IMG/VR virus record: IMGVR_UViG_3300008267_000012
Direction: 5' to 3' (one strand)
From: a virus
Lineage: Duplodnaviria; Caudoviricetes
DNA length: 64,000 nt
In this document: piece after piece, positions 15,886-49,129 of the stretch
Numbering within the stretch: the first letter of the stretch is position 1
Layout: each line of letters begins with the position of its first letter
Notes under the pieces: model-generated
What the model saw: only the letters and a program-made list of their open reading frames with translations
Told to the model about the DNA's origin: nothing
Databases searched by the model: none
Position numbers and translations under genes: made by a program

Positions 15886-18800
15886 TTATTCTGAAAATAT
15901 ATTATTATAAAAATAATGCTTAGTTCCACTCTGATTTAATGGACAATTAGGTGATATTGATTTTACTTCAATACTATACCAACGATTAGAAACATTTGGT
16001 TGAGGTGACATTAATTTTTGTATTTGTTTTGATGATATTTCTTGTGCTGTTGGGTAATAATTAGTCATACTATTAGGTGTATAACATCCAACAGGTAAAG
16101 AAATATCAGATGGTGGTGAATTTATATTACTCTCTTTATAATAACATACTCTTAAATTATATTTATTAGCATTTGGGTTTAATTTAAATGAGAATAACCA
16201 TTTATTTGCTAAGTCTCTTTGCGTTGAGAGATTACCTACATCACAAATTGATAAAGTTTTAAATGAAATTATTTTACCAAAAGTTGTAGGGCCAGTAAAA
16301 CTATTATATCTTATATATGGTCTCATATAATATGTTGTATTTGGTTCTAAATTAAATTCATTTTCAATAATTGTATTACCTGTATTTGTATTTGATAATA
16401 TTACATTTGGTGAACTATTATATAAACCATCAGTAAAAAAAAGATTATTCAATGATGTACTATATTGTACTCCTTTAAAAGCAATAAAAAAATTTTCATA
16501 ATTTGATATATTATAATTAAATCTAACTTTATTATATGAGATATTTGAAATATTTTCTGAACTTACACTTGGTGGTGAAGTTATTATTGAATCAATATTA
16601 GATAAACAATCAAAACAACAATTTTTTGATTTATATTTTTGATAATATTTTGTATATGGTAATAAATTTTCCGTAAAACCTCCAATACCATTCATCACAG
16701 GTAATGGATAAAGATAAATTTGAAATGGTGTTATTATTGAATCATAAGTTTGAAAACTTATATCAGTTGATGTTATTAAAGATTCATTAGTTAAAGAATT
16801 ATCATTTTTTGATGATGTAGCACCTTGAGAGAAAATTTTACTAGTCCAAGCATCGTTTATTTTTTCAGTAATAGAAACTGGTCTCGGTTGTGTAACTAAT
16901 AAACAAATTGGTTGTGTAACTAATCTATTTGTAAAAGATAATTCATCTCCATAAAATGTATCATTTGAGTTAGTAGCAAATGCTCTAACATAATATGTTG
17001 TTTGATTTGATGAACTTGGATATGTAATAGTATTATTAAAAAAGTTACTATTATTACCATAGCTTACATTATCACTTATAGTAGGATTTTGAGAGGTTGA
17101 CCAACAAATTCCTCTTGATATTATTGGTGAAGTAGCTAGATTTAATATTACACCACCACTTTTTGCAGAAGCATAATCAATATTTGTTATTGAATTTGTT
17201 TGTACAACCAATATATCAGGAAGTGTTGTAAATTCTATCTCATTTCCATATGTTATCCCTAATGAATTACTACAATATGCTCTTGCATAATATGTTGTGT
17301 TTGGTTGTAATCCACTAAAATATAATGAAAATTTTTGATATGGATATATAAAAGTACCAGATAGGTTATTATCACTTATAGTAGGATTTGGTGAGGTTGA
17401 GTAACAAATTCCTCTCATAATCATTGGTAATCCACCTGTTGAATTTATAATACCGTTTAAATATCCTGTTTGTGTTAAAACATTTGTTGCAGGAAGTGTT
17501 GTAACTGATGGTAAACTAGCTGCTGCTGTATTTACTACTACTTCATTACCGTATCCTGTATATTGAGAGTTTCTAGAAAATGCTCTAAAATAATATGTTG
17601 TGTTAGCATTTAGATTTTTAATATTTAATGTGAATGTATCACTAGTTGCATTACTATAAGAAATAAAATTATTTATTGTAGGATTTGATGAAGTTGACCA
17701 ACATATGCCTTTAAAAACAGTTGGTGTTCCACCTTCATCATTTATTATACCACCAATTGTTAGTGTATCTGATGTGATATTTGATGCTGATGTTGTTGTT
17801 ACTATTGGTGTAAAAACAGTATCAAATGGTATTTGTGGTGAACCATAAAGATTAGACCTTATTGAATATCTAGGATATTTACCAAATCCAAGATTAAAAT
17901 CTATACTACCATTATTATTACAATAACTCATTATAGTACCATTGTTATTAGTTATTGGAGTACTATAACAATTAGGATTTTGAGGGCAACTATCAATACT
18001 ACCTATAAAACTTCCTTGGTCATTTTTCCAAACACAAGCATGTGTATGGTTACTTCCTAAAACATGTCCTAATTCATGTGTAAAAAGATAAACAGGTACT
18101 GACCAAGTTGTACCAAAATTATTTGTTGGTACTCCACCATTATAAACATCTGTAAAAAAGAAACACTTATTTGCTGGTATACTTGGGTTAGCATTACTAT
18201 ATCCATTAGATTGTCCATTAAGATACGCTACACCAACACCATTTGGTATTGCTTCTTTACCAATTAAATGTTTAAAATGTTGTGTTGTTGATGTTGGTGT
18301 ACCTGCATTTATATTAGTTACAAATTTACCAAATATTTGATTATAACTTAATCCTTCATAAGGGTCAACTTGGTCATCCCAAATAAATATTTCTCTTAAA
18401 GAAACTTTAACCCCTTCTCTAAGAAATATTGCGGATGAGTTTGCCCAAATTGTAACTACATTATCTCTAGTTAATGCACTATCACTACCCCAAGATATAT
18501 GTATAGAATTCATTACTTCAGAATAAACTTTACAGGTTTTTTTTATTAGTTTATTTGGATTATAAAAATCTGAATTAACTAAAGTAACTGACTCTACCTG
18601 TTGGTTAGTATCTAATGAATTACATGTTAAAGGTATTTTTTTTAAGCTGTTATCTTCTACAACTTTTGATGGTGTCATATTAAAAAATCTTTTACCATCA
18701 CTTGTGTATGTACCTTGCCAACCTCTTTTAGTATAATGTAATGTACTCAAGTAAGTTCTTGAGCGATAAATAATTGGTTTGTATGCATAACTTTTACCTG

Positions 18801-19005
18801 ATGATGTTTTTACTAAAATATCATCAACTTCAATTTTATCATAAATATCTTTTTTACCATCTGGTAATTTTGATACAAAACTTTCTAAAAATAGAAATTT
18901 TTTATTAATTTTTGACCCACTATTGTTCCAAACATTAAATACTCTCTGACCATTTATATTAAAGGTAATTAATAATGATATTATTAATAATATTAATCTA
19001 CACAT
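15886..19005 (-). CDS. Secreted metzincin (M12B/reprolysin-like) with FN3-type repeats and the shared C-terminal domain
   Basis: Signal peptide; HELGHVLGSNH (18046-18078) and Met-turn IMSYC; three GICWSTSxNPTI-type repeats; Cys-containing C-terminal domain 15886-16245. Confidence 0.85.
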   Translation of the reverse strand: MCRLILLIISLLITFNINGQRVFNVWNNSGSKINKKFLFLESFVSKLPDGKKDIYDKIEVDDILVKTSSGKSYAYKPIIYRSRTYLSTLHYTKRGWQGTYTSDGKRFFNMTPSKVVEDNSLKKIPLTCNSLDTNQQVESVTLVNSDFYNPNKLIKKTCKVYSEVMNSIHISWGSDSALTRDNVVTIWANSSAIFLREGVKVSLREIFIWDDQVDPYEGLSYNQIFGKFVTNINAGTPTSTTQHFKHLIGKEAIPNGVGVAYLNGQSNGYSNANPSIPANKCFFFTDVYNGGVPTNNFGTTWSVPVYLFTHELGHVLGSNHTHACVWKNDQGSFIGSIDSCPQNPNCYSTPITNNNGTIMSYCNNNGSIDFNLGFGKYPRYSIRSNLYGSPQIPFDTVFTPIVTTTSASNITSDTLTIGGIINDEGGTPTVFKGICWSTSSNPTINNFISYSNATSDTFTLNIKNLNANTTYYFRAFSRNSQYTGYGNEVVVNTAAASLPSVTTLPATNVLTQTGYLNGIINSTGGLPMIMRGICYSTSPNPTISDNNLSGTFIYPYQKFSLYFSGLQPNTTYYARAYCSNSLGITYGNEIEFTTLPDILVVQTNSITNIDYASAKSGGVILNLATSPIISRGICWSTSQNPTISDNVSYGNNSNFFNNTITYPSSSNQTTYYVRAFATNSNDTFYGDELSFTNRLVTQPICLLVTQPRPVSITEKINDAWTSKIFSQGATSSKNDNSLTNESLITSTDISFQTYDSIITPFQIYLYPLPVMNGIGGFTENLLPYTKYYQKYKSKNCCFDCLSNIDSIITSPPSVSSENISNISYNKVRFNYNISNYENFFIAFKGVQYSTSLNNLFFTDGLYNSSPNVILSNTNTGNTIIENEFNLEPNTTYYMRPYIRYNSFTGPTTFGKIISFKTLSICDVGNLSTQRDLANKWLFSFKLNPNANKYNLRVCYYKESNINSPPSDISLPVGCYTPNSMTNYYPTAQEISSKQIQKLMSPQPNVSNRWYSIEVKSISPNCPLNQSGTKHYFYNNIFSE

Positions 19006-19031
19006 TTATTTAATTTACTATAAATAGTAAA

Positions 19032-19493
19032 TTAAACCCAAGCCTCTATAAATTTGGAAGGCTTTTCATCTATGAAATAATAATCTTCTAAACCTAAATA
19101 ATTTAATTTTTCTAATTCATGTTTTTTGATAATAAAGAATTCTATTCCTTGTTTGGTTTTATCATCCATATAGAAATATATTTTATCATCTGAAATAAAA
19201 TCTTTTATTATGTTTTTTGTTGATGCTTTCTCAACAACAACATATTCAGATTCATATAAATCATTTACTTCTTGTGCAAGTATATTTGAGAACTGCTCTC
19301 TGACTATATCTGTATCAGTTAAATTATTTCTATCAAGTATTCTTTGATATGCAAATTCAAATAAATAACAGAAGTAATCGCTGAATGATTCATCATTCAT
19401 TAAGTCCTGTTTTAGGTTTTTGTGAATGAGATATAATTCGCCAAGTGCGGTTTCAAAGTCAACCGTAAAATTGCGCTTCAAAGGAAATTTCAT
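19032..19493 (-). CDS. Hypothetical protein
   Basis: 153 aa; TAAATTTG 4 nt upstream. Confidence 0.7.
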   Translation of the reverse strand: MKFPLKRNFTVDFETALGELYLIHKNLKQDLMNDESFSDYFCYLFEFAYQRILDRNNLTDTDIVREQFSNILAQEVNDLYESEYVVVEKASTKNIIKDFISDDKIYFYMDDKTKQGIEFFIIKKHELEKLNYLGLEDYYFIDEKPSKFIEAWV

Positions 19494-21232: not shown

Positions 21233-21233
21233 T

Positions 21234-21482
21234 TTACTCTTCCGTTTCAAAGGAAATTTCATTGGGTAAATTTAAGGGAAATTTTATTAATTTTATTTGT
21301 TTTGATAATTCATCAGCAATTTCAAAGTGTTCATATTCAACAAAATAAGGAAGTAAAAAAAATTCTAAAATCTCAATTCTTTTAAAATCTTCCATACCAT
21401 CCATTAAAAAATTTGATTTTTTAATTTCTTCATATGAACTCCACATAGCTTTGTGGAGTATATCATAGTTGCTGATTTCCAT
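21234..21482 (-). CDS. Hypothetical protein
   Basis: 82 aa; 3' end is a recombinant junction. Confidence 0.65.
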   Translation of the reverse strand: MEISNYDILHKAMWSSYEEIKKSNFLMDGMEDFKRIEILEFFLLPYFVEYEHFEIADELSKQIKLIKFPLNLPNEISFETEE

Positions 21483-21485
21483 ATT

Positions 21486-32746: not shown

Positions 32747-33277
32747 TTAAATATTGTTTATTAATGCTAATTCAAATTGTCTTGCATCAATTAGACTTTT
32801 TGCTTTAATATAACGGTTATTCTTCCTATAATAAACATGTTTGTGTAAATCTTTATTTTTAACGGCTTTAACAACTTTGTTAAACCCTAAACAAAAACTT
32901 GCATGTGCATGAGCAAGTTTCCAATTGTATGAGCTATCTTTGAATTTATTATTTATTTCTGTTAACGCTTTATTGAAATCTTCTTTTAAAATTTCCATTG
33001 CTTTTGTTGTATCAACAGATTTAAATCTTTCTCCTTTCAATAATCTATGCCCATACCCAATAGTTTTAAAACCTGCTGGGCATCTATAAACTTTTGGCAT
33101 AAACTTTTCTCTTTCTTTTAATTCATTTATACATTCATTATAAACATTCAAACTATCGTTTTCTTCAAATGTATGAGAAATGTTTTGTTTGTTTCTTTTG
33201 TGAAATTTATTGTTTTCAAATTTAAAGAACAATAAAACCATTAGTATGGTACATACTTTATTAAATGTTGTTTTCAT
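32747..33277 (-). CDS. GH24 lysozyme (endolysin) with N-terminal hydrophobic segment
   Basis: E57-x8-C66-x5-T72 triad (EKFMPKVYRCPAGFKTIGYG). Confidence 0.85.
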   Translation of the reverse strand: MKTTFNKVCTILMVLLFFKFENNKFHKRNKQNISHTFEENDSLNVYNECINELKEREKFMPKVYRCPAGFKTIGYGHRLLKGERFKSVDTTKAMEILKEDFNKALTEINNKFKDSSYNWKLAHAHASFCLGFNKVVKAVKNKDLHKHVYYRKNNRYIKAKSLIDARQFELALINNI

Positions 33278-36300: not shown

Positions 36301-36819
36301 ATCAAAACTAGGTTTAGAAGAACCCATTTCTGATTCAGGTAGTGCTACATATGTATCTTTTGCAGTTCTTAGTTTACCAATGTTAATATTGTCATTTCCA
36401 TCTCCTTGTAATAAACCACCAATATCATCTTTAGTAACAGTTAAACCACCAAAGCTTCTTTCATTTTTTCTATCAAAAACTTTATAACTTACACCTGTAA
36501 AATCTTTTCCTGAAAATTCTCTACCATCAGATGTTGTAACTTTAAAAGTTGATGTTACAACCTGATGTTTTTTAAATACATAAGATTTTATTTTACCATT
36601 TGGTCTTGGTAAATCAAAAACAAATTCTTCAGGTTCACTTCTATATAAAGTTGATAATGTTGTTCTATCTAAAGATAATTGTAAACCTTTTTGTTTAATC
36701 TTACTACTTTTAGGTGCATTGGGGAAGTTCCTCAAAAAATTAAATCTTTGAGGTTCTTCCTGTGCATATGATTTTAAAGTTAATAATGTTAATAATAAAT
36801 ACAGATATATTTTTTTCAT
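33370..36819 (-). CDS. Secreted metzincin: prodomain, M12B-like protease, Ig, jelly-roll-like module, 3 VDSxN repeats, shared C-terminal domain
   Basis: Signal peptide; HEMGHNFGSKH (35728-35760), IMSYC; C-terminal domain 33370-33756. Confidence 0.88.
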   Translation of the reverse strand: MKKIYLYLLLTLLTLKSYAQEEPQRFNFLRNFPNAPKSSKIKQKGLQLSLDRTTLSTLYRSEPEEFVFDLPRPNGKIKSYVFKKHQVVTSTFKVTTSDGREFSGKDFTGVSYKVFDRKNERSFGGLTVTKDDIGGLLQGDGNDNINIGKLRTAKDTYVALPESEMGSSKPSFDCTTPDPPLNVDENQWLREVQPQIGNTPTPEVGEAVGGSGCKTIGIYVECDYRMYQENGLSVANTTAKVTSLFNLVKQIYENEGISIYVDQVYIWTTPDPYASISPISSLAILNNFTTRRQNITQKLGHLLGTNFGFLGGIAWIDVVCNPLYYNNRFGYSNIYNTFNNNINTYSWSVYVVAHEMGHNFGSKHTHWCGWPKAGGGTGRIDSCYAGEGGCGTLVKPIKGTIMSYCHTASTGVDLMKGFGPLPGDKIRTGSSCLPGNAIPYIKVTTPRRFYSAGEILPLRTTTVGGATYSWTGPNSFTSSSQSPNINSLTSSNSGLYSVTATQTGCLSNAAKIRIRVNPLLNIPQTETFSTWTAANYPNWEFKGPQSLSDLNTNYNGALVQSFWQNSKSFLLTTYNALYHTFAITSTNNPSPAFLQDTAFSPVYTNNNLSSLNLNFKVAHALGLSSSPRYDSLEILAYFSGKTIPVRIYKKGGTTLRTVTNLYTSTSPYKPASITSSDWRTETVDLSSYDTCKNVQFAFVFKPTQLTTIPSNNLFINTITVDGTDSPTALKTPTISVDSANNLDKNYTLTTTIPSTHNATSYQVLQGTTVIASGNLANNNATTITTARTNVTNGTYTHTANLSNGSQTKTSSPVTVNVSFNVTPILTGTLSVDSTSNKDPNYVLSFAIPQNHNATSYQILQGTTVIGSGNLANNNSITITLSRLGISNGTYTHTAKLLNSSKTPNNTTSNSVAVAVNYNPVISLAVPTVTADTLVNLDKNYIITFNTPSNHNATSYEIKEGSTIVKSSPLTNNNSFTTTLSVTNKANGTYSYTGVLKNGIYNSISLPINVIVNYNPSVPTSACTTTSITAIDRRRTNFTYSFNLSNSCSSTGYKVLFYNGNSANGFLASDSTLSQTQASKLIWQPTGGSVRNAGQSNGNITFTTSELNSSTFLRVASPLPSYSNRWYRVDVVCTSCTQTVKTKTAYFFVK

Positions 36820-36823: not shown

Positions 36824-39244
36824 TTAATTTGTTACATAGAAATAAGCGACTCTCTTTTTGTTTGTTTGAGAACAAGTAGTACAAACTATTTCAACTTTAT
36901 ACCATCTATTTCCAAGAACAGGTAATGGACTTGCAACTCTGTTAAATACTTTAGAAGTAAGTTCAGCATTTGTGAATTTTATATTTCCATTTGGAAATCC
37001 AACATTTCTAGGGCCACCACCTTCAGGTTTCCAAGTTAATCTATTTATTTGTGTTTGTGTTAGACTTGAATTGCTTGCTGAAACTCCTGTTACATTTTGT
37101 CCACTATAAAATAATGCTTTATAACTTGTTGTAGGACAATTTGGGTTTAAAGTAAATGAATATCTAAAACTACTTTTACTAGTATTTGGTGATGTAAGTG
37201 TACTAGTTGTACAAGCTTTAGCATCAACAACAGGTGCAGGAACATAAGTACTTGTAAAATTTATATTACTTTTTACAATTTGTGTTGTCTTATTAAATAC
37301 TCTAACAGAATATGTATATGTACCAGCTGTCTTGTTTTTAAATTTTAAACTAGTAGATGTTCTATTTTCTGGATTTAATAATCCCGAACCTATTAATCTA
37401 CCATTTTCACTAACTTCATATTGTGTTGCTTTATGTCTAGTTGGTAACGGTATTGTTAATGTATATGTACCTGTAGATGGTGAAGGATTATTAATAACAG
37501 GATTAAAATCTGTTATTGGGGTTGTAAATGTATCAACTAATACAGGTAATGTATCTGTACTAACCAAATTTAATCTGTTTTTATCAAAAATACTGAAAAT
37601 ACCATCTTGTGTATTACCTATTGATACTGTATGTTTATGAATACCATTGCTTGCTCTCCTTATAGTATATTCAATCATTTTAAAACCGCCTACAATATCT
37701 GATATTACTAATTGTGTATCTGATTGTGATTCTAAAAAAATACTGTTTTTAATTAATTTTTTACCATCATAAAATAATATTACATCACTATTATGGTCTG
37801 GTGGTAAAAATACTCTTAATTTATATGTCCTATCTTTATTTCTTGTTGAGTCAACATCAAGTCTTGGAACTCCTACAGGTGGATACGGAAAATCTGTGTA
37901 CACCGTTACATTTTGATAACCATCTTTAATATATCCATTTTTTAAAAGTAATTTAACACCATAAATAACTTTACCATTAAGTGTACTATCTCTCATTATA
38001 GTTACTGTTGTATCATTATATTCTATACGAGTAGGATTGTATGTTATACTATCATAAATAATACTATCTAATTTTATCGTTTCTATAAGTATATCGGCAG
38101 ATGATGTTTTTGCATATACAAATGCTAAAGATGAATTGTGATTATTTGGTATATTTACTGTTAAAGTATGTGTTCTATCATAATTATGTACGCTATCAAC
38201 TGTTATTGAAGGTGGGCTTTGAGGGTCTAAGGTGTCAATCATATAGTTAATAGCAAATTTATCTATTATTGTCAGACTTGAGTTACTAACTCTATAATTT
38301 ATCCCAGGAAAAGGCTTCAATATTATCATAACTTTTATCGTATTAGCTGTATCATATGGACTTAAATCAAAACTAAACCTTTTCCAATCGTATGATTTAT
38401 TTGATGTTGGGTAACGAAGTCTAGTTGTATCTAAATATTCACTAGTACTTAACTGTAACCCACCTCTTTTCCATAATTCAACAGGTGTTTGATTATTTCC
38501 AATTAAAGCTTTTACAATCAAAGTATCATACTCACTATCTGTAGAATCTGCTAAATAATGGACATAATTAAAATGAAGAGTTAATTTTCTATCATTACTT
38601 GATGTGTCAGGTATTGAAAAAACATTAGATATTATACTATCAGGATATGAATATATTGATGTGTCAGGAGAGTGATAAACAGCATTGTATGGTAAACCAC
38701 CATCAAGATAATATCTTAAACTATTCCAAAGACTTTTAATATTTTTACCTGCTAAAACAGAACTATCACTAGGTCTATAAACACCTTTAAATTCCCAATT
38801 AGGATAGTTACCATTATGTTCCATTTCTTCAAAACTTTCATAAAATGGAACACTCAAACCTGATGTTACTGTAATATGTATTGAATCAAGTGTTGTTGGG
38901 CAACCACTTTGTCTAAATCTAACATAATACCATCCTGAATCTGCTAATGTTAAATTATTTCTTACAGAAAAAGTATTTTCTTCAACACCAAAATCACCAG
39001 CAAAATCTTCTAATGATGTTGTATCTCCATTTGGATATATAAAGTTATAATACAAAAGATTTAGACCATCGGTTGAACCTTCACTAACAAATCTAAATAC
39101 TGATAATGTTAAATTAGAACCAACAGGGTATGAAGTTTGTGTTGTTACAATAGAAGGTTGAGAACAAAATGTCTCTAATTGTCCAAAAGATAAATTTGGT
39201 AACAAAAGTATTAAACTTGTGAGTATGTAAAGTATTTTTTTCAT
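36824..39244 (-). CDS. Secreted paralogue lacking the protease domain
   Basis: Start reset to MKKILYIL (806 aa); Ig, NYPNWEFKG module, VDSxN repeats, C-terminal domain 36824-37213. Confidence 0.85.
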   Translation of the reverse strand: MKKILYILTSLILLLPNLSFGQLETFCSQPSIVTTQTSYPVGSNLTLSVFRFVSEGSTDGLNLLYYNFIYPNGDTTSLEDFAGDFGVEENTFSVRNNLTLADSGWYYVRFRQSGCPTTLDSIHITVTSGLSVPFYESFEEMEHNGNYPNWEFKGVYRPSDSSVLAGKNIKSLWNSLRYYLDGGLPYNAVYHSPDTSIYSYPDSIISNVFSIPDTSSNDRKLTLHFNYVHYLADSTDSEYDTLIVKALIGNNQTPVELWKRGGLQLSTSEYLDTTRLRYPTSNKSYDWKRFSFDLSPYDTANTIKVMIILKPFPGINYRVSNSSLTIIDKFAINYMIDTLDPQSPPSITVDSVHNYDRTHTLTVNIPNNHNSSLAFVYAKTSSADILIETIKLDSIIYDSITYNPTRIEYNDTTVTIMRDSTLNGKVIYGVKLLLKNGYIKDGYQNVTVYTDFPYPPVGVPRLDVDSTRNKDRTYKLRVFLPPDHNSDVILFYDGKKLIKNSIFLESQSDTQLVISDIVGGFKMIEYTIRRASNGIHKHTVSIGNTQDGIFSIFDKNRLNLVSTDTLPVLVDTFTTPITDFNPVINNPSPSTGTYTLTIPLPTRHKATQYEVSENGRLIGSGLLNPENRTSTSLKFKNKTAGTYTYSVRVFNKTTQIVKSNINFTSTYVPAPVVDAKACTTSTLTSPNTSKSSFRYSFTLNPNCPTTSYKALFYSGQNVTGVSASNSSLTQTQINRLTWKPEGGGPRNVGFPNGNIKFTNAELTSKVFNRVASPLPVLGNRWYKVEIVCTTCSQTNKKRVAYFYVTN

Positions 39245-39251
39245 AGTTTTA

Positions 39252-42200
39252 TTATTCATTAAAGTAGTAATATATTGATTTAATGTTTTGAGATGTAGAA
39301 CCGCTAGGACAAGCTGTACAAATAACATCAATTCTATACCAATTATTTAAAGTCGTTGGTTTAGGGGTTAATCTACTGAACATTTTATTTAGTCGTTCTT
39401 GTTGTGTAAATCTTATTGTTCCATCAGGAATCTCATCATTTTGGAATCTTGCAATTGGTGTAGGGTTTACTGTTAATTTTTTAACATAGAAATCTTCAAG
39501 ATATTCATTATTTGCATAAATTGTAGTTGCGACTTCATTACCATTACTATCAACACTAGTTGATGTTGAATTTTCTAATTTATATAATAAAACTCTATAT
39601 TTCGTTAAAGGACAAGAGGATAATAAATCAAAATTTAAAATATCTGTAAATGGTTCTATATTAAAATTATTAAGTGGAATACATGGTCTAGGATTTAATT
39701 TAACTTGTACAAAATTTGAATTTTGAAGAGGATATGAAACATTATTTGCAGCACTATATGCTCTTAAAATATATGAATACGCACCTGGGTTAGGTTTTTT
39801 ATCTTTTATTGAATCAACCTGTAAAAAACAATTATATTGTTGTGTAATCTGTACTCTTTTCTTGAAAACAAAAGGATTAGAAGTATTTGATTGATTTTTT
39901 TCATAAACATCCACGAAATCTATATTATTTAATTCATCAGGTTTAGGAGAATTAACTTCAATATATAAATTATAATTACCATAATTAAAATCAGATACAT
40001 CACTTAATTGTGGTATTTGTCCGTTTGGTGTTAAAGAATCTGAATTTCTAACATATAATTTAATAACTCCAAGAGGTACGGTACATGTTCTACAAATAGC
40101 TACACTAGTTGGTTCAGTAAATTCAACAGTAGGATTGTCAAGAATACTACTATATCTAAGACGATATAAATGTAAACCATCTGGTATATTTGTAAGATTG
40201 AAATTATAAGAACATGTTACGTTATAATTATAAAATTTAACATTAGTTGGCATTGCAGGTGTACAATTTGTATATGTTAAGGTTTGTCCTACATTTTGCC
40301 ATGTAGTATCAGATTCTCCTGTAGGTGTTGTTACAATTGTACCTTTTTGTAATACGAAATTCTGAATATTTGACTTAGCAAAAAATGTAGTTTTTAATGA
40401 AAGATTACCATCAAAATTAAAAGCACTATCAGGAAAAAATATTGGTTTTCTTTTAGGTAACCTTTTTTGATATGTTGTAACACTTGTTGTTATTGTTTGT
40501 GGTTCTGTTTCATTAAAAATATTACCATTTATATTTGCTGTATTTAGATTTTCTAAAACAGCCTCTAAATTATATTGATTTCCAGGTGTTGTTTGAAAAG
40601 ACCCTTCTGCAAGTATAGGACCTACAAATGTACCATCCGCTTTTTTAATTTCATTATCATCTATACTATATGTTTGTTCTGTAATACCTGTCTTTAATAA
40701 TTGTCTAGTATTATCTGGTCTAATTAAATTAATTGTATATCTATAAACATTATTTGGTATTGGTGAAGTTAATTTCCAATTACCTACTCTATCTTCAGGG
40801 TCAACATTTGGATTCAAAGGTATAGTATCATTTACAGCATTAGTAATTTCAAGTGTTGGGTCTCCTCCTTCACATAATTCTAATGGAATATTTCTTCCAC
40901 TTAATATTTCCATAGAACCTAAAACTAATGAACTAGCATATAAACTAGAAGAAATATTTTTATAAACAATATCAAATTGTAAACTTCTACAATCATCAAA
41001 ATTTCTTATATCTAATTTTATATCAGACCAATCAACTGTATTTTTATAATATCTATTATTGATAGGACTTCTTAAATATTCTGCCATAGGCTTATGGTAT
41101 ATTTTAATGGGTTCTATTTCTCCTGTGTATACATTTTTTGTATATCCAGGAAACCACGCTACTGTTCCTATTGGCATTGGTACGCTATCAAATTCAATAG
41201 GTGAGTTAAAATAATGGTTTAATACATAACCTGGTCTTATTAATCTTTGTGTATTAAAATAACCAGGTGTTAATTCACCATTATTAGTTAATGTATAATT
41301 ACCACTACCAGTGCCTTCAAATTGTTCCGCAGGGTCACCAAATCTATGAAATTTAAAATGAGTTTTATTTTTATATGATGACATATCTTTTAGATTTCCT
41401 TCAAAAACTAAACTTCTCCTTAATGTACCATTTTCAGTTACACCTCTTGCCCATATTTCTATCTTATCTGCACCAAAATTTTGACCTGCTCTTATATTAG
41501 CACTCCATCTCATGCTCTGCGCTCCTGTTGGTGCATAATAATAAACAATACCTGTATCGGGTACAGTAAAATATGAATAACTTAATTTAAACCTTAAATA
41601 GTTATTTTGATTGTCATCATTAAAATATAAAGGTGAACGTGCTGTATCTGATGTACCTTTTCTAAAATTTGTTAAACTAGCCCAATCAGGTAAGGATTTT
41701 AGATTTCCAAATTCATTATTAAGATAATCAGTAGCTTTATAATTACGCTTACGAGTTTCACCCCAATAATCATCTCTTATAGCCTGTTCATTATCAAATT
41801 GTACATCATTTGTTCCCCATAAATAACTTAAAGTCCAAAAATCATAAGTTTTATCAATTCTAGTTATTGGGTCATACCAATTAATATTAAAAGGAGGTGT
41901 TTGAATTATTGGTCTTAATCTATACCATTCACTACCTTCTGAAAAAATACCAGGAAAAACTCTATTTGCTCTAGTTCTATTTATCCATATATAATCTCTT
42001 TCATGAAACCAACTAGAAGAATGCGCCCATGCTTCTGGACCTTGTCCAAGCCATGTATTTGAAGCATCGTTTTGCCATGTTTCATTATACCCATAAGTAC
42101 TTCTAGCACCTAAATCAATAATTTTGTTAGTTGCAAATAATCTATCTCTACCATAAAAATATTTTATTGGTGACTTAGCATTTGATGGTAATCTTCCACC

Positions 42201-45200
42201 ACCTATATTTACAACACTAAATGTTTCATCATCATTATTTTCGTAAGTAATACCACTTGTAAAAACATTTGGTCTATAATATTCATAAATATTAAATGCC
42301 CAATTTTTCCAAGGTTTTTCTCTATAAGCATAGGCTTTATACATAGGTCTGTGTTCGTTTTTGAAAAATACACCACCACCATCATATGCCCCTAATCCAT
42401 AATTATATGTTTTATCAAATCTTGGGTCAGCTAATGCAGGGTCACCTACTGTATATTGTTCTTTTGCTTTTTCAGAACTTCTTATTGGGAAATAAAATAA
42501 TGTATTATAACTTGACCAATTATCTACATAAGTTGCATATTGGAATGGAGTATAATTAAAAAAATCAGGGCTAAATCCTTGTGCAAAACGAGAACTTACA
42601 TATGCATTTCTGTGAAAAACTGGGTGTTCATTATTTGCCACTCTTCCTGAGTAAAATGGGTCTAATGATGTTGATAAGTTACCCATACTCCATCCTGTAT
42701 TACTAAAACGAGATGGTGACCAAGGTTTCATACCTCTATTATAATATCCTGCTGTATACGTTGATGCTTCATTAAAAGCATTGCCTTCACCTGTTGACCA
42801 AGGACCAATAAATTCCCAATTCTTCATTCCAAAGGCTCTATTACCATATAAATTTTTAGTATTTAAATTAAATTGGTCATATTTAATTCGTGAAGTACCA
42901 CCTTTTAATGTAAAAGCACCAACTGAAAAACCAAATGGTGTATATGGTGTAAATGAAGCACCACTAGATGGACTAATTTTTTCTATAAAACTAAGCCTTA
43001 CAGGTGTTTCTTTTCTAGGATATACTCTAATATATTTTATAGCAGTATTTGAAATACAACCACTAGTATCTGTTAGTCTTAAAGATATTGGATAAATTCG
43101 CATTAAACTATCCTGATTACTATTATTAGGTATAAATATTCTAGCCCTAGATTTATTTCTAGCCCTAGGAATACCTGCTAATCCTGTAATTGGAAAATTT
43201 CCGTTTGCATTGGTTAAAGAAGCACTATTAAAACTCCATACATAACCAGTACTATCAAATCTAGAACCGCCAGGTCTATCCAAAGCTTCATAGCGTGATT
43301 GGACTTTCATTTGTTTTCCATACCAATTATCAAGATTTGTAAAATTATCTGATTCGTTAATTTGTTCTTCTGTTGTTAGACTATTATTTTTTATAACCAT
43401 TAATCCTTCATTTACAACATTATTTTCAATACCAGGATAATCGGCAGCTAAAACATTATTTCTTGCAAATATTGTATCACCTGCAAATTGATATTCAATG
43501 GCAGGTGATAATATATTTCTTTTATGCCATAAACTAACAGTTGCGTATGGATTAGGTCTTCCTCTAATCAAACCATTACCTCTAACACAATTTGGGTCTG
43601 TTGTACAATTACAATTATTTATATTTGGTCCATGTCCACTAATTTCTTCGCCCATCAGATTTAATCTAATTAAATCACCTGTTTTTTTATCAAATCCTTT
43701 TGAAAATGATACTAAATCAACAGGACACATATTATCTATTAATTGTAAATTCCACATTGAATATCTTGCATCCCAGTTTTGCCAACCAATTTTTAAATCA
43801 CCCTTTTTATCCCAATCATCTTCATCATAATTATTGTCTCCTGATGAATTTGTAGATTGTATATGTTTTCTATATATATAAGGCCATTGATAACCTACAA
43901 CTGGTGGTACTAAATCTTCTCTACTCCAACCGAAAGATGAACCTTGTGTTACCATTGTTGCTGCAATATATACTGCTAAAACAACCCATGTAACTGTCAT
44001 TGTTGTACCATTATGCCATAAGTTTTTATCATCGTCATTACCAAACCAATGTGCATAACCATTCCACCACCAATTTTCACCATTACCTCTTACTGTATGT
44101 TTAGATGCAAATTTTATTCTAAGTGGAACAAAAATACCTGCTGTTATTAAGGCATTACCTAAATTACCCCATACTAAATCCATAATATCAGTAGGTTCTG
44201 ATACGCCAGTTGCAAAACTAGGATACAAATAAGTTTGATACCAATGTCTAAGCCATGACGTATTTCCAGGTACATTTTTTTCAGATGGCGCTCTTTCACT
44301 TATATGCGGTGTACCTTCAGGACCTGAATTAGGAGAATAAGTATAATTATCAGCATCATAATTATTATTTCTTGCTAATGGTGCTAAAATTGTATTTCTA
44401 TTTGTTGTTGTCGTAAAATATCTTGGACCTAATTTTATTGCAATGTGATGAACTAACATCCAAACATTCCATTTGTCAATATTATATGCAAGATGATTTG
44501 AATTTCCAAATTGACCTGTTGTACCATAAAGTTCTTGAACATCTTGATAATTCCATTGTAAAACAGTATCAGTAGCTATTTCATCACCATCATATATGAT
44601 TTTATGCATAGGATATTGTTTGTAATTTATAGCATCACCATTTTTCCAATCTCCATTATTTGTTAATACATCAAAATATTTTGTATTGACATTTTCTAAA
44701 TCATAGGTATAATACCACATATTACCTAACAATGGTATTATTCCAGTTCTATCAGGTATAGTTTCAAATTTTGTATTATTAGGTAACCCATATATTTTAG
44801 TAGGATAAGAAATATATGGATGTGATACACCAATTGATTGTAGATGTGCGCCAACCTCATCAAATCCATTTACTTTAATATTTTGATATGAAACAGGCAT
44901 TTTTTTAGACAAATCATAATAATATACAAATGGGTCAATATTACCGAATAAAGTAGAATTATAACTTGATGGATTTGGTAAATTTAAAACATTATCATCT
45001 GATATATCTTTAGGTGCTACAAGCATTGGTAAATAATTGTTATGATTAAATGTGCCTGGAGGTATATTATAATTTCCCCAACGCATGTTCATACTCCAAC
45101 CAGTAAAATTATTTCCATTCCAATCATTGCTTTCGTTTGCAAAATTTTGACCACTATATTTTATTATATTTGCTCTTGCATTTTCATTCCTAATGAATTC

Positions 45201-46727
45201 TTTCCAACTCATAGCAGGATTTTCATTTGTCGTTGCAGGTGTAATATCACCAATATAAAACCAAAAACCATCATAAAAATCACTTAAACTTTGACCATAT
45301 GTTGGTCCATAAAGTCCAGGACCAATTTGTTGTCTTATTCTTATAAAAGGTGTTGTTGAAAAATAATTAGCATTTGTTAGTTTTTCAAATGTTTTACCAG
45401 TCCATCTATCATTATATAATGTAAAAGCAGTATCATTGTCAGCGACTGATTTTATATAATCATTAAAAACATCAAAAAGTCCATGTAAACCCCAACGTAC
45501 ACCTGATGTATTTGTTCTACCACATGACCAAAGATTTATATTACTATAATTACCACCATTATAAAAGTCATTATCATCTTTTGGTATATCTTTAAAAGCA
45601 CCATCATCCGCTTCACTATATGGTGATTGCCAACCTTTCCATTCTCTATTACCTCGTAAATATTGATTTTTAAAATGTTTAATATCATAAACCACTTCAC
45701 TAGTGGCATTATCTAAAGCACCTTGTTCGGGTGTAAAATCTTTTTGATAAGTTTCTAAAGGTTCTGTTTCAACAACTATTTTACCTAATTGAACATTAAT
45801 TCCTTCATTTTTAAAAATATTTACTACTTGTGTAAAATAATTTGTTAATTTTTGTGTAACTTGAGTTACCGCTGTTTGATTATAACTCTTTTTAATAGAA
45901 CCTTCTTTTAATGTTAATTTTCCATTTTCAATAATAAATGTTGGTGTTTGCCATTTTAAATACATTTCATAACTTATCATGTAATTTACTAAAATTACTT
46001 GACATCTAGTATATACTAAAGGTTCACAATCATGATTACTTGGTGGTGGGGCTGGGGCAGGTGCTAATAATTCATCATTTTTAAATTGTTTAAAAGTTTG
46101 TTGACTTTCTTTTTCGTTTTTAATATCAAAATCTTTTACTTCTTTCATTGCCGATATATCAGATTTTGTAAGTATTTTTTCATTTTTAATTTTATCAATC
46201 TTTGAAATAATATCTTTTATATTTTTAAAATCTTCTGTGCTTTTATCATTTATCTGATTTTTTGATATGTGTGTAATTTTAGTATTAAATTCTTTTTCTA
46301 TTTTAATTTCTTCACCATTAACTCGTAAATTAATATAAACATTATTTGGATATATTGTCATTGTACCCATATTAATATTATTAAAATCATTTATATTATA
46401 TGAAAGACCATTATATAATTTTGTGGTAAAAAAATGTCCACTAGTTGTATAAGTCATTCCAAGATTATCTTCTCCACGAATATCTAATCTTTCTAACTCA
46501 AACTTTTCGGTAGTGTTTAAATATGGAATTTCCATTTCAACAATAGCATTTTTAGGTTCTGAGCTAAAAATCTCCATTAAATTATCTTTATTAACAGTAA
46601 AATGTTTTTCAGGTGATTTCCTTTCAACAATTTTATAAGGTTTTCCTAATGAATTATTTATTGCACCTAAAGATTTGAATATTAATGTATTCAATAAAAT
46701 TAGTGAGAAAAGTAATATTTTTTTCAT
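39252..46727 (-). CDS. Giant secreted pseudo-metalloprotease (2491 aa) with the shared C-terminal domain
   Basis: Signal peptide; aligns to the prodomain and protease of 33370, but the Zn motif reads HHIAIKLG; C-terminal domain 39252-39683. Confidence 0.8.
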   Translation of the reverse strand: MKKILLFSLILLNTLIFKSLGAINNSLGKPYKIVERKSPEKHFTVNKDNLMEIFSSEPKNAIVEMEIPYLNTTEKFELERLDIRGEDNLGMTYTTSGHFFTTKLYNGLSYNINDFNNINMGTMTIYPNNVYINLRVNGEEIKIEKEFNTKITHISKNQINDKSTEDFKNIKDIISKIDKIKNEKILTKSDISAMKEVKDFDIKNEKESQQTFKQFKNDELLAPAPAPPPSNHDCEPLVYTRCQVILVNYMISYEMYLKWQTPTFIIENGKLTLKEGSIKKSYNQTAVTQVTQKLTNYFTQVVNIFKNEGINVQLGKIVVETEPLETYQKDFTPEQGALDNATSEVVYDIKHFKNQYLRGNREWKGWQSPYSEADDGAFKDIPKDDNDFYNGGNYSNINLWSCGRTNTSGVRWGLHGLFDVFNDYIKSVADNDTAFTLYNDRWTGKTFEKLTNANYFSTTPFIRIRQQIGPGLYGPTYGQSLSDFYDGFWFYIGDITPATTNENPAMSWKEFIRNENARANIIKYSGQNFANESNDWNGNNFTGWSMNMRWGNYNIPPGTFNHNNYLPMLVAPKDISDDNVLNLPNPSSYNSTLFGNIDPFVYYYDLSKKMPVSYQNIKVNGFDEVGAHLQSIGVSHPYISYPTKIYGLPNNTKFETIPDRTGIIPLLGNMWYYTYDLENVNTKYFDVLTNNGDWKNGDAINYKQYPMHKIIYDGDEIATDTVLQWNYQDVQELYGTTGQFGNSNHLAYNIDKWNVWMLVHHIAIKLGPRYFTTTTNRNTILAPLARNNNYDADNYTYSPNSGPEGTPHISERAPSEKNVPGNTSWLRHWYQTYLYPSFATGVSEPTDIMDLVWGNLGNALITAGIFVPLRIKFASKHTVRGNGENWWWNGYAHWFGNDDDKNLWHNGTTMTVTWVVLAVYIAATMVTQGSSFGWSREDLVPPVVGYQWPYIYRKHIQSTNSSGDNNYDEDDWDKKGDLKIGWQNWDARYSMWNLQLIDNMCPVDLVSFSKGFDKKTGDLIRLNLMGEEISGHGPNINNCNCTTDPNCVRGNGLIRGRPNPYATVSLWHKRNILSPAIEYQFAGDTIFARNNVLAADYPGIENNVVNEGLMVIKNNSLTTEEQINESDNFTNLDNWYGKQMKVQSRYEALDRPGGSRFDSTGYVWSFNSASLTNANGNFPITGLAGIPRARNKSRARIFIPNNSNQDSLMRIYPISLRLTDTSGCISNTAIKYIRVYPRKETPVRLSFIEKISPSSGASFTPYTPFGFSVGAFTLKGGTSRIKYDQFNLNTKNLYGNRAFGMKNWEFIGPWSTGEGNAFNEASTYTAGYYNRGMKPWSPSRFSNTGWSMGNLSTSLDPFYSGRVANNEHPVFHRNAYVSSRFAQGFSPDFFNYTPFQYATYVDNWSSYNTLFYFPIRSSEKAKEQYTVGDPALADPRFDKTYNYGLGAYDGGGVFFKNEHRPMYKAYAYREKPWKNWAFNIYEYYRPNVFTSGITYENNDDETFSVVNIGGGRLPSNAKSPIKYFYGRDRLFATNKIIDLGARSTYGYNETWQNDASNTWLGQGPEAWAHSSSWFHERDYIWINRTRANRVFPGIFSEGSEWYRLRPIIQTPPFNINWYDPITRIDKTYDFWTLSYLWGTNDVQFDNEQAIRDDYWGETRKRNYKATDYLNNEFGNLKSLPDWASLTNFRKGTSDTARSPLYFNDDNQNNYLRFKLSYSYFTVPDTGIVYYYAPTGAQSMRWSANIRAGQNFGADKIEIWARGVTENGTLRRSLVFEGNLKDMSSYKNKTHFKFHRFGDPAEQFEGTGSGNYTLTNNGELTPGYFNTQRLIRPGYVLNHYFNSPIEFDSVPMPIGTVAWFPGYTKNVYTGEIEPIKIYHKPMAEYLRSPINNRYYKNTVDWSDIKLDIRNFDDCRSLQFDIVYKNISSSLYASSLVLGSMEILSGRNIPLELCEGGDPTLEITNAVNDTIPLNPNVDPEDRVGNWKLTSPIPNNVYRYTINLIRPDNTRQLLKTGITEQTYSIDDNEIKKADGTFVGPILAEGSFQTTPGNQYNLEAVLENLNTANINGNIFNETEPQTITTSVTTYQKRLPKRKPIFFPDSAFNFDGNLSLKTTFFAKSNIQNFVLQKGTIVTTPTGESDTTWQNVGQTLTYTNCTPAMPTNVKFYNYNVTCSYNFNLTNIPDGLHLYRLRYSSILDNPTVEFTEPTSVAICRTCTVPLGVIKLYVRNSDSLTPNGQIPQLSDVSDFNYGNYNLYIEVNSPKPDELNNIDFVDVYEKNQSNTSNPFVFKKRVQITQQYNCFLQVDSIKDKKPNPGAYSYILRAYSAANNVSYPLQNSNFVQVKLNPRPCIPLNNFNIEPFTDILNFDLLSSCPLTKYRVLLYKLENSTSTSVDSNGNEVATTIYANNEYLEDFYVKKLTVNPTPIARFQNDEIPDGTIRFTQQERLNKMFSRLTPKPTTLNNWYRIDVICTACPSGSTSQNIKSIYYYFNE

Positions 46728-46749
46728 GTTTTTTTATTTTTAAATAGGT

Positions 46750-48006
46750 TTAATTTGTTACATATGTATAAATTGTTCTGATATTTGTTGGACTATTACA
46801 TCCTGCACATACGATGTCTATTCTATACCAACAGTTACCATATGTTAACTTAGGAGTTGCTTTTCTCCTAAAAAATCCTTGACTTACTTCAGTTTGTGTT
46901 AGTAAAATTCTTGTGCTTGTTGTTGTTTCAATTTCTGCATTTTTATATTGAACCTTTGCTAACGGTAGCGTTCCAACTTGTACTTGTGACAATGAAGGAT
47001 TTGATGCAAGTAATCCATTACCATCAATACATCTATAAAATCTTGCTTCCCAACCTGTTCTTGGACAGGATGTTAAGGTGTTAAATCTATATTCAAAATT
47101 TGCTTTTGTACTATTAATTACACTAAGTGCTGTTGTTGAGCATTGTTTTGCTGCAAATCTTACAGTTAATAAATCACTAAAATGTGTATTACAACTATCA
47201 TATACTTCAACTGATTTAATTTTATAATATTTTATACCTGTTTGAGGTACAGTTACGGTTGGTCTTGCCCATAATTTATCATTTCCAAAGTTACCCATAG
47301 GACCAGGGGCAGTAAATATATTATTTTGGAAATAATTAAAAGTAGTAAAAGGATATAATAATTGACCACTTGAAGTGCATTCCCATAATTCATACCTTCC
47401 AACATTATTTAATGATGATGCATATATTTGACCACTAGGTGGTGTAGGATTAAACCAATATGTAGAATTTGGTTTCCATTCACTATGAATATTAATTCTT
47501 GCTACTTTATCATAATTTACAGCACTATCAGCAGTTATTTTCATTGGTAACATAAATGTAGAATTATGTGATAATCCCAAAATATTATTTTCTGGTCCTT
47601 GCGGTGTAATTGCGTATTTATGATTTTGAAGTGTATCAACTACTAAAAAATAATAATATAATTTTACACTATGTAATTGATTAGTTCTATTAATTATAAC
47701 TGTGTCTGCTGATGTTGTAGATGGTAAGATACCATATATGGGATAATCATAAAATAATGTATCATTTATATTACCATCAGTACATAATTTAGTACCAATT
47801 AATACAATGTAGTAATATTTAAAACCGTGATTTTCTTTAAATATTGCTTTTAATTGATGCGTTCTATCTTTATTTGATGTTGAATCAACTGTAAAAATTA
47901 CATCTTCTGTAACATAAAATGGGTCAATTGTAGGAACTGCTTGTTGTGCAAATATTTTTACTGAAGTAAGTAAAAGTATTAGAAGTGTGTAAAGTATTTT
48001 TTTCAT
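46750..48006 (-). CDS. Secreted paralogue: 2 VDSxN repeats plus shared C-terminal domain
   Basis: Signal peptide; VDSTSNKDRTH, ADSAVNYDK; C-terminal domain 46750-47142. Confidence 0.85.
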   Translation of the reverse strand: MKKILYTLLILLLTSVKIFAQQAVPTIDPFYVTEDVIFTVDSTSNKDRTHQLKAIFKENHGFKYYYIVLIGTKLCTDGNINDTLFYDYPIYGILPSTTSADTVIINRTNQLHSVKLYYYFLVVDTLQNHKYAITPQGPENNILGLSHNSTFMLPMKITADSAVNYDKVARINIHSEWKPNSTYWFNPTPPSGQIYASSLNNVGRYELWECTSSGQLLYPFTTFNYFQNNIFTAPGPMGNFGNDKLWARPTVTVPQTGIKYYKIKSVEVYDSCNTHFSDLLTVRFAAKQCSTTALSVINSTKANFEYRFNTLTSCPRTGWEARFYRCIDGNGLLASNPSLSQVQVGTLPLAKVQYKNAEIETTTSTRILLTQTEVSQGFFRRKATPKLTYGNCWYRIDIVCAGCNSPTNIRTIYTYVTN

Positions 48007-48010
48007 AATT

Positions 48011-49129
48011 TTAAAGGTATATATAAACGTATTTACTTATTAATTTATTAGGATATGGGCAAGTTGCACAAACGATATCTATTCTGTACCATCCATAATT
48101 TATTATTTTTGGTGATGCATCTCTTTCAAAATATCCTTGAATTATTTCTTGTTGTGTTAATGTTATCCTAGAACTTGTTAAAGTCTCAATATCTGTAACA
48201 TTCTTATATTGAACATTAGCGGTTTTTAAATTTGGTAAAATTGATTGAGATAAGTTTAAATTTTGAGCATCGTAATTATCTGTATCTAATAATCTATAAA
48301 ATCTTGCTTCATATGCTCTTGTCTGATTAGGACAATTTGAATTTAGAGTAAATCTATATCTAAATTTTGTTGTTTGGTCATTTAAAATACTTAAATTACT
48401 TGGGGCGCAAGATGGAACAACAGGTGGTGGATTAAATGTTACCGTAGTTACATTACTTAGAGCAAATTCACAAGTATCAAGCGTTGGAAATAAAAATGCT
48501 CTTCTTCTTAAAAATGCTCTGTAATAGTATGTTCCTGGTGGTTTTGTTATATTAAAATCAACTGTAGTTGGTGGATTCGTAGTGTATGTTGGTGTTTGTA
48601 ATATATTTGTAAAGGTTGAACTAGTTGCAGAGGTATATTCTCTTATAACTATTCTACCAACATTACTAACGGTTGGTAAGGTAACTCTTAATCTAGCTGT
48701 ATTATTATTATTTATAACAGTATCAACAGATAAAAAACTATTATTTAAAGTTTTTATTGGTTTATTATTTTGTTTTGTTATAATTTGTATTTGGTTTGCT
48801 GCATTATTTGTAGCAACTGCTATGTACAAATAAATACCATTACCAATTGTTGGCATAACATAAGAAAATGTGTCTGCTGATGTTGTGTTTACTGTTGGTT
48901 GTTGTAATAAATTATAACCTTGTTGTTGGTATGTACAAAGATTTGCATATTGTCCAATAATATTAAAAGATGTAATTCCATGATTTGGTTTTAAAATAAT
49001 CTTTATGGTATGTATTGTATCATAATTGATTGATGAATCTACCTGTATTGCCCAAGAAGAATTTGATGATTGGCTAAATCCTAAGAATGGAAAAAGGGTT
49101 AGGGTTAAAAATATTAAAAATTTTTTCAT
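48011..49129 (-). CDS. Secreted paralogue: 2 VDSxN repeats plus shared C-terminal domain
   Basis: Signal peptide; VDSSINYDTIH, VDTVINNNN; C-terminal domain 48011-48409. Confidence 0.85.
   Translation of the reverse strand: MKKFLIFLTLTLFPFLGFSQSSNSSWAIQVDSSINYDTIHTIKIILKPNHGITSFNIIGQYANLCTYQQQGYNLLQQPTVNTTSADTFSYVMPTIGNGIYLYIAVATNNAANQIQIITKQNNKPIKTLNNSFLSVDTVINNNNTARLRVTLPTVSNVGRIVIREYTSATSSTFTNILQTPTYTTNPPTTVDFNITKPPGTYYYRAFLRRRAFLFPTLDTCEFALSNVTTVTFNPPPVVPSCAPSNLSILNDQTTKFRYRFTLNSNCPNQTRAYEARFYRLLDTDNYDAQNLNLSQSILPNLKTANVQYKNVTDIETLTSSRITLTQQEIIQGYFERDASPKIINYGWYRIDIVCATCPYPNKLISKYVYIYL

Follow-up and report, generated by a model that had tools for sequence, protein, structure and literature searches.

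A cysteine-containing C-terminal domain on six predicted secreted proteins of an uncultured jumbo phage: a possible non-canonical type IX export tag

The window analysed here, a stretch of 64,000 nucleotides from the virus record IMGVR_UViG_3300008267_000012 in IMG/VR (Duplodnaviria; Caudoviricetes), carries six genes on its minus strand whose products share a C-terminal domain (Table 1). Genes 2 to 6 form an array of 15.76 kb (33370-49129), which adjoins a Phage_lysozyme gene. The six open reading frames (ORFs), and the array of five beside an endolysin gene, lie where an initial annotation of this DNA had placed them, and only the start of gene 3 needed correction. Because a TTG start at 39331 overlaps the upstream gene, the most likely start of this frame (listed as 36824-39331) is the ATG at 39244 (MKKILYILTSLILLLPNLSFGQ; MKKILY), 7 nt past the upstream stop codon.

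As judged from their sequences, the products of genes 1 and 2 are reprolysin-like M12B metallopeptidases. Both match Reprolysin_5 above the Pfam cut-off (44.9 and 72.6 bits, respectively) and both contain the zinc motif HExxHxxGxxH. In the gene 1 product, a signal peptide and the protease (HELGHVLGSNH) are followed by three 'GICWST' fibronectin type III (FN3)-like modules, by more beta-modules and by the C-terminal domain. In that of gene 2, the signal peptide and the protease (HEMGHNFGSKH) precede an immunoglobulin (Ig)-like module, a 'PNWEFKG' domain, three ChitinaseA_N-like 'NHNATS' modules and the C-terminal domain. The gene 3 product has a signal peptide, an Ig-like module, a 'PNWEFKG' domain and NHN-type modules ahead of its C-terminal domain. 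Scans with Pfam and other libraries recognised no catalytic domain in the proteins of genes 3 to 6, gene 3 included, and these four look adhesin-like from their sequence. The giant product of gene 4 belongs to no recognised family, and its only relatives are phage proteins bearing the same C-terminal domain; PHROGs gave no annotation for any of the six proteins. The same tail, therefore, stands on passengers as varied as proteases, a giant of 2491 amino acids (aa) and module proteins of 372-806 aa, and none of them has a canonical type IX secretion system (T9SS) C-terminal sorting domain (CTD).

All six proteins begin with a signal-peptide-like segment (basic residues, then a hydrophobic stretch), in agreement with the Sec-type signals initially ascribed to them. 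The predicted cleavage sites, which like the signal peptides were called by a heuristic and not by SignalP, are SYA-Q, SFG-Q, IFA-Q, GFS-Q, NING-Q and SLG-A, with Gln at +1 in five of the six; Gln at this position is habitual in signal peptidase I (SPI) substrates of Bacteroidota. The proteins contain 6-20 Cys each.

Table 1. Positions in the window of the six genes, their C-terminal domains, the associated motifs and other features
Feature	Position	Strand	Details
Gene 1 (P0001)	15886..19005	-	1039 aa; Reprolysin_5 E 2e-11
Gene 2 (P0002)	33370..36819	-	1149 aa; Reprolysin_5 E 7e-20
Gene 3 (P0003)	36824..39244	-	806 aa, counted from the ATG at 39244
Gene 4 (P0004)	39252..46727	-	2491 aa; giant, predicted exported protein
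Gene 5 (P0005)	46750..48006	-	418 aa; signal peptide, NHN-type beta-modules, C-terminal domain
Gene 6 (P0006)	48011..49129	-	372 aa; signal peptide, NHN-type beta-modules, C-terminal domain
Domain copy, gene 1	15889..16257	-	residues ~917-1039; subfamily B; HMM E 8e-28; groups with 'WYSVDV' sequences in the alignment
Domain copy, gene 2	33373..33789	-	residues ~1011-1149; HMM E 1e-49; modelled with AlphaFold2
Domain copy, gene 3	36827..37249	-	HMM E 1e-50
Domain copy, gene 4	39255..39719	-	HMM E 5e-31; 13-residue insertion
Domain copy, gene 5	46753..47154	-	HMM E 9e-44
Domain copy, gene 6	48014..48442	-	HMM E 3e-41
CTATTTA	49139..49145	-	9 nt upstream of the gene 6 start
CTATTTA	46741-46747	-	before gene 4
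CTATTTA	19021-19027	-	before gene 1
Endolysin-like gene	32747..33277	-	PF00959 Phage_lysozyme E 1.8e-9; phrog_7; directly downstream of the array
PurZ-like gene	29903-30910	-	adenylosuccinate-synthetase homologue; phrog_1211, E 9e-62
DatZ/MazZ-like gene	24139-24882	-	dGTP_diPhyd_N + NT5C protein
Family-2 glycosyltransferase gene	19545-20462	+	close upstream of gene 1
Methyltransferase gene	20447-21262	-	Methyltransf_24/CmcI-like; close upstream of gene 1
Small ORF	19032-19493		between gene 1 and the glycosyltransferase/methyltransferase pair
Small exported ORF	15596-15868	-	no C-terminal domain of the family
Small exported ORF	22847-23161	-	no C-terminal domain of the family
Small exported ORF	23651-24139	-	no C-terminal domain of the family

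The C-terminal 125-150 residues of the six proteins align at 25-51% identity, with 10 invariant columns. A hidden Markov model (HMM) of the family, run against all six-frame ORFs of the window, found exactly six copies (E 8e-28 to 1e-50), every one of them C-terminal, so the similarity is far beyond chance and the shared Cys-containing domain noticed at the outset is real. The conserved columns comprise four Cys, a Phe, a Glu, an Arg, a Trp-Tyr pair and a terminal aromatic residue. One Cys stands before the first strand, another ~25 residues on, and a CxxC lies near the end; over the whole family there are 4-6 conserved Cys, and a short Pro-rich linker usually runs ahead of the first. As had been described, five copies keep four Cys including the CxxC, and the gene 1 copy is divergent because it is a member of a second subfamily (B, below).

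Searches of Pfam, NCBIfam, PHROG and PDB sequences returned no match to the domain, even when the isolated domains were used at E<=10. In an exhaustive profile search of 1.84 billion representatives we found only 38 proteins at E<=1e-3, with the match running to the C-terminus in nearly every one. A wider profile collected 100 proteins with the domain, each with a single copy ending 1-10 residues from the C-terminus; in none of the 100 was it internal or repeated. Of the 91 family members that start with Met, 70 have a signal-peptide-like N-terminus, and 62 of these 70 have xQ at the predicted cleavage site; most members without a signal peptide look like truncated metagenome calls. As far as these sequence searches reach, the domain defines a rare, phage-centred family that was previously unrecognised, as the initial annotation had supposed.

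To describe the fold, we used AlphaFold2 models of two copies: that of gene 2 (P0002:1010-1149; 6 sequences; predicted local distance difference test (pLDDT) 82, predicted template modelling score (pTM) 0.77) and that of P0042, a Cytophagaceae protease carrying the domain (residues 518-656; 45 sequences; pLDDT 86). Both are beta-sandwiches with 7-8 strands of at least 3 residues and one or two short helices, the first having 7 such strands and two short helices. In VIA-align searches against 48,161 chains the best match of each was an FN3 domain: 1tdq_A for the first (Z 9.2, 93 aligned residues, root-mean-square deviation (rmsd) 2.6) and 3l5j_B for the second (Z 9.6, 92 residues, rmsd 3.1; 44 chains at Z>=8). 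Foldseek against PDB gave nothing at E<=1e-3 for either model, and the AlphaFold database clusters, together with ESM Atlas structure and feature searches, gave weak matches only, to FN3 or other beta-sandwiches or to unnamed clusters. At the level of sequence, none of the six domains matched the Pfam FN3 models (PF00041 and relatives) at E<=10, and hhalign against the proteins' own internal FN3-like modules gave probabilities of 0.1-0.2%. Since FN3 chains lead for both models, the modelled fold is best described as an FN3-type beta-sandwich with ~40 extra residues, outside every FN3 sequence family. The possibility raised at the outset, that the domain would prove to be a known FN3 or Ig family also found internally, is borne out only for the type of fold. 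Compared with FN3 domains at large, including accessory modules of bacterial hydrolases and peptidases, the new domain is alike in fold (Z 8-9.6, ~90 aligned residues, rmsd 2.6-3.1) but has, besides its additional length, conserved disulfide-type Cys and an obligatory C-terminal, single-copy position.

This fold opens a reading in which the tail is no secretion signal but a ligand-binding or anchoring FN3 module. The Sec pathway would then serve only periplasmic disulfide folding, the proteins would act in the periplasm or be freed at lysis by the endolysin, and the tail would bind one target shared by all of them, such as an envelope glycan, peptidoglycan, a surface protein or matrix. Besides the lead of FN3 in both structure searches, a serine peptidase (8jmw) and a Bacteroides glycoside hydrolase (6u4z) appear among the matches with beta-sandwiches that are C-terminal or accessory, the passengers are Cys-rich, and the array adjoins the endolysin gene. 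Binding modules of Bacteroidota cargo are, however, normally internal and followed by a CTD, whereas among the 100 proteins this domain is never internal, repeated or accompanied by a type-A CTD. On balance, we regard an anchoring module as the main rival of the export-tag reading set out below, and as only slightly less likely.

The family falls into three subfamilies, A, B and C. Subfamily A consists of the five array copies, ending ...YFYVTN, and occurs on phage contigs of 27-28% G+C (L001, L026, L027). Subfamily B comprises the gene 1 copy and its relatives, which have WYSVDV, six Cys and often a FVPGI ending, and is found on other phage-like contigs in addition to the window. Subfamily C, which ends ...RWYSLRCQGSDG.TQLHFFWWP, directly follows the protease via a poly-Pro linker. 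It lies in temperate-phage regions with an integrase, a helix-turn-helix repressor, a primase, methylases and a head maturation protease (phrog_53, E 3e-60). On two integrase-bearing phages (L030, L031) its protease gene lies between the replication/methylase module and the head maturation protease, and from this placement it looks like a cargo gene of the lysogenic-conversion type. We had considered that subfamily C was chromosomal, which would have argued for a bacterial origin of the domain; this was rejected on finding that its contexts are temperate phages.

A second kind of array exists in a different, higher-GC phage-like lineage. On contigs L003, L004 and L005 (37% G+C) and on the contig of P0040, three consecutive giant genes encode reprolysin and FN3-repeat proteins, all ending in a subfamily B domain; the proteins are at least 1341, 2400 and 741 aa long, and elsewhere 1441, 2434 and 1335 aa. 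One sample also contains a subfamily A protease beside an RNA ligase and a PurZ-like gene.

Subfamily B is also found on the chromosome, in freshwater Cytophagaceae and Spirosoma metagenome-assembled genomes, where the neighbours of the gene are exonuclease VII, glycosyltransferases, a heparinase and a desaturase. Each genome that has the domain has it once, in every case on a ~655 aa protease orthologue, and it occurs in 5 of 20 genomes of one Cytophagales family but in none of the 400 others sampled from Bacteroidota. These carriers possess a T9SS, which counts in favour of a link with type IX secretion: beside their single copy of the domain they have a porU-porV operon, with 84 to at least 150 matches to type-A CTDs and 15-23 to type-B CTDs in each genome. 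With subfamily C in temperate phages and a chromosomal copy in a single Cytophagales family, the family is phage-centred with one sporadic bacterial offshoot, and the claim that the domain is specific to phages does not hold.

The number of copies differs with the kind of phage: a jumbo phage has several, on passengers of different kinds, and a temperate phage has a single one, on an M12B protease. This pattern bears on two further explanations. The tail could be a docking module that, much as a dockerin joins a cohesin, attaches its passengers to one phage or host scaffold, or to free virions as a decoration added after lysis. Many passengers with one tail in one genome would suit such a role, and the structural matches include FN3/Ig-like modules of the tail-tip protein J of phage lambda (8iyk_J, Z 8.9). 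However, signal peptides separate the proteins from the compartment in which virions are assembled, the window showed no protein with repeated receptor modules that could be such a scaffold, and the temperate-phage and bacterial versions have one carrier only, which makes docking improbable. Alternatively, the domain could be a folding aid or prodomain specific to the protease, like PPC domains, that was shuffled along in the jumbo phage with no role in addressing. Its restriction to M12B proteases in bacteria and temperate phages fits this idea, but the products of genes 3 to 6, like the giant phage proteins, lack a protease domain and yet keep the four Cys, the Glu, the Arg and the Trp-Tyr, evidently under constraint, at 25-50% identity, and we consider it very improbable.

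The proteases allow the history of the tail to be followed. The gene 2 protein is homologous over its full length to bacterial P0042, with 41% identity over the protease and 35% over the NHNATS module and the tail. Among ~116 homologues of the bacterial protease, 32 carry the type-A CTD (PF18962), in line with the initial statement that such M12B proteases usually end in a T9SS CTD; 48 carry the new domain (in a first labelling) and none carries both. Nor do the two domains occur together in any of the 100 proteins. A maximum-likelihood tree built on the protease domain (93 rows, LG+C20) brings every protease that has the new domain into a single clade (support 98/81), which is nearly all phage-borne and nested among type-A bearers. 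Within it, the jumbo-phage clade (100/100) is sister to the bacterial subfamily B.

Inside the bacterial subfamily B, beside P0042 (100/96), stand two proteins, P0087 and P0088, that share 56% identity with P0042 as far as residue 528, some six residues short of the first Cys of the domain. Past this point they have other repeats and a terminal Por_Secre_tail instead of the new domain; this sublineage appears, from its place in the tree, to have swapped back to type A. Another nested group, the phage-borne P0107-110, likewise lacks the domain and has a different C-terminal module, together with a lipoprotein-type signal peptide followed by acidic residues; the acidic stretch is possibly a surface lipoprotein export signal. 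P0107, which lies on contig L032, has the same lipoprotein signal and acidic residues as P0108-P0110. Hence, wherever the tail is absent from the clade, another envelope-targeting device is present, and this pairing of each loss with a type-A CTD or a lipoprotein signal speaks against a plain anchoring module.

The initial annotation had proposed that the phage replaced a T9SS CTD with its own tag. The nesting of a nearly all phage-borne clade among type-A bearers makes such a replacement plausible, although the replacing domain has no profile similarity to the CTD and is not confined to phages. Because the tree has only a midpoint root and the branch of gene 1 is very long, which way the first replacement went, and that transfer ran from phage to bacterium, are what we infer and not what the tree fixes.

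Taken together, the single terminal copy, the varied passengers and the mutual exclusivity and interchange with the type-A CTD suggest an export or address tag of the T9SS type, though not a canonical one, on Sec-exported phage proteins, a reading to which we give a probability of about 0.4. In such a scheme, the six proteins would be exported by Sec via their signal peptides, mostly with Gln at +1, and the passengers would fold oxidatively in the periplasm, with the conserved Cys probably forming disulfides. The domain, acting as a non-canonical CTD, would then hand the folded passengers to the T9SS of the host, and two proteases and four adhesin-like proteins would reach the cell surface or the medium during infection, where they might remodel the envelope or receptors. 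The family would have arisen on the M12B protease lineage, in the slot of the type-A CTD, and jumbo phages would later have spread it to non-protease passengers, often together with ChitinaseA_N-like modules. A more specific version, in which the tail is a phage-borne fourth class of type IX signal, evolved from FN3 by jumbo and temperate phages of Bacteroidota, accepted by the host translocon with a possible bypass of PorV/PorU and occasionally leaking to host chromosomes, seems doubtful to us; it would allow a phage to export proteases and giant adhesin-like proteins of its own while it infects.

What is known of the T9SS leaves room for a tag of this kind. A rare CTD class outside A and B exists, the type C of Flavobacterium johnsoniae ChiA (cl41395; PMC10202324), and the T9SS therefore accepts CTDs unrelated in sequence. 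In the translocon, CTDs are bound by a plastic pocket that fits their shape, and the conserved residues of CTDs serve mostly to set the fold (PMC10994853). The new domain resembles the ChiA CTD in being a rare C-terminal domain outside both main classes; T9SS dependence, however, has been demonstrated for ChiA, whereas for the new family it is a proposal. Phages, too, can encode T9SS cargo, as Cryophage does (Bellas et al. 2020; PMC7468147). In both cases phage genes encode exported enzymes that presumably use the host T9SS, but the Cryophage proteins have canonical type-A sorting domains, whereas here a different, phage-centred tail is found on six proteins without any canonical CTD.

The closest functional counterpart would be the type-A CTD (Por_Secre_tail; PF18962/TIGR04183). 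Like it, the new domain is the last domain of multi-domain Bacteroidota-type proteins with an N-terminal Sec signal and is a beta-sandwich (as seen in the AlphaFold2 models, the 100 proteins and the heuristic signals), and it occupies the same slot in M12B proteases. Indeed, genes 1 and 2 belong with the secreted M12B metalloproteases of Bacteroidota by their HExxHxxGxxH motif and Reprolysin_3/5 matches, but are phage-encoded and have the new domain in place of the C-terminal sorting domain. Unlike the type-A CTD, which occurs on tens of host proteins per genome, the new domain is rare and phage-centred, and it has 4-6 conserved Cys and FN3-type topology. The compact seven-stranded sandwich described for type A does not fit it either, with 125-150 aa in the new domain and 72-75 positions in the curated type-A models.

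A number of results weigh against a T9SS tag. The curated type-A HMM (PF18962/TIGR04183) matched none of the six full proteins and, at E<=10, none of the isolated domains. A second HMM, derived from 12 genuine type-A CTDs, was likewise without a match in the ORFs of the window, and hhalign of the new domain against these 12 gave a probability of 0.2%. Type-B models (PF13585/TIGR04131) in Pfam and NCBIfam were equally without a match at E<=10. The similarity to T9SS CTDs that the initial annotation had proposed to look for is, therefore, absent at the profile level, and in the structure searches FN3 domains rank ahead of solved T9SS CTDs: the CTD of PorU (6za2_B, residues 1054-1156) does match the first model at Z 6.8 over 95 residues, which favours a tag, but no T9SS CTD is among the top 50 matches of the second. 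The lack of similarity to the CTD classes is equally a point for the anchoring module. With ~135 aa and extra loops, the domain also exceeds the curated CTD models of 72-85 positions.

For a type-B CTD an adjacent PorP/SprF-family gene would be expected, and none adjoins the six genes, whose neighbours are a family-2 glycosyltransferase (GT2), a methyltransferase, GIY-YIG, the lysozyme or small ORFs of unknown function; neither a PorP/SprF-like nor another conserved partner gene was found near the phage genes or across the bacterial loci. For type C, NCBIfam at E<=10 gave no T9SS-related family, though this library may hold no type-C model. The bacterial distribution is also odd for a general sorting signal, with a single copy on a single protease family in few genomes, and is what an anchoring module tied to one protease would show. 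A search with the helicase of the phage gave no clue to its host. Docking of the P0042 domain with the PorV of its own genome (G001) scored 0.14 against a mark of 0.34, which counts neither way.

As an export or address signal, the tail would represent a new class of T9SS-type sorting domain, the first with its evolutionary home in phages, and would give whole sets of secreted effectors (~19 kb of coding sequence here) a private label. It would then bear on the recognition of T9SS cargo by shape rather than sequence, and on superinfection exclusion or receptor destruction in Bacteroidota, where adhesins secreted by the T9SS are said to be used by phages as receptors. It could also find practical use as an orthogonal secretion tag. 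Should it prove a binding module and nothing more, it still defines a new FN3-derived family, found only at the C-terminus, by which a conserved set of secreted phage proteins can be recognised.

The phage itself can be characterized to some extent. The window has 28% G+C and no tRNA genes, and its PHROG and Pfam matches comprise an RNA ligase, a PurZ-like synthetase, ParB, HNH, an SNF2-type helicase, a phage lysozyme, a T5orf172/GIY-YIG protein and a DatZ-like hydrolase. Orthologues of gene 6 with 71-84% identity were found on metagenome contigs only, one of which (L001; 240,771 bp) has the same array in the same gene order. No GenBank phage matched 20 kb of the window at the DNA level or the C-terminal domain in tblastn, and in IMG/VR we found no relative of P0005 and only a 26-residue match to the tail of P0047. 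From the array shared with the large contig, the restriction of orthologues to metagenomes and the absence of GenBank matches, we conclude that the window is a piece of an uncultured jumbo phage; a low-GC jumbo phage of a Bacteroidota host is the best explanation.

We also examined the motif CTATTTA, which had been reported ahead of 19005, 46727 and 49129. It is present at all three places (Table 1) and heads the three transcription units of the set (genes 6-5, genes 4-3-2 and gene 1). Over the window it is not enriched (25 copies, 29 expected), but a place 6-17 nt upstream of a same-strand start codon, where 0.4 copies are expected, is taken by 11 of the 25. These sites are at 26618, 55005 and 56326 on the plus strand and at 62712, 61834, 58694, 49949, 49139, 46741, 19021 and 2270 on the minus strand, and the extended form of the motif is (A/T)CTATTTA(A/T)A. 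Specificity for the six genes was rejected, since at least 8 other genes carry a copy upstream; for these PHROGs gave no annotation. The motif, thus, looks from its placement like a promoter or expression class with very short leaders rather than the mark of a dedicated regulon.

Two of the modules that precede the C-terminal domain recur as well. Modules of ~95 aa with the pattern 'VDSxxNxD...NHN(A/G)' are repeated in all five array proteins (33790-34617 in the window, and within genes 3-6). They also occur in the bacterial homologue P0042 (residues ~431-520), and so travel with the C-terminal domain; the 'NHN' module of one relative gave a weak match to ChitinaseA_N (PF08329). The 'PNWEFKG...' domain, of ~190 aa and without a family match, is common to genes 2, 3 and 4; it covers residues ~525-720 of P0002, is also found in P0003 and has the variant KNWEFIGPW in P0004.

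Several neighbouring genes deserve mention. The endolysin-like protein begins with a hydrophobic segment (MKTTFNKVCTILMVLLFF...), which may indicate export of the signal-anchor-release type. The PurZ-like gene and, near it, the gene for the DatZ/MazZ-like protein suggest by homology a pathway for 2-aminoadenine (Z-base) DNA in this jumbo phage, and an Adenylsucc_synt gene is also present on a related phage contig. Close upstream of gene 1, separated from it by a single small ORF, the GT2 and methyltransferase genes may encode functions in glycan modification. Three further small ORFs have export signals without the tail domain, two of the lipoprotein type (..SC-KKE) and one of the SPI type with Gln at +1. 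Judging by these signals, the phage directs more proteins to the envelope than those that bear the tail.

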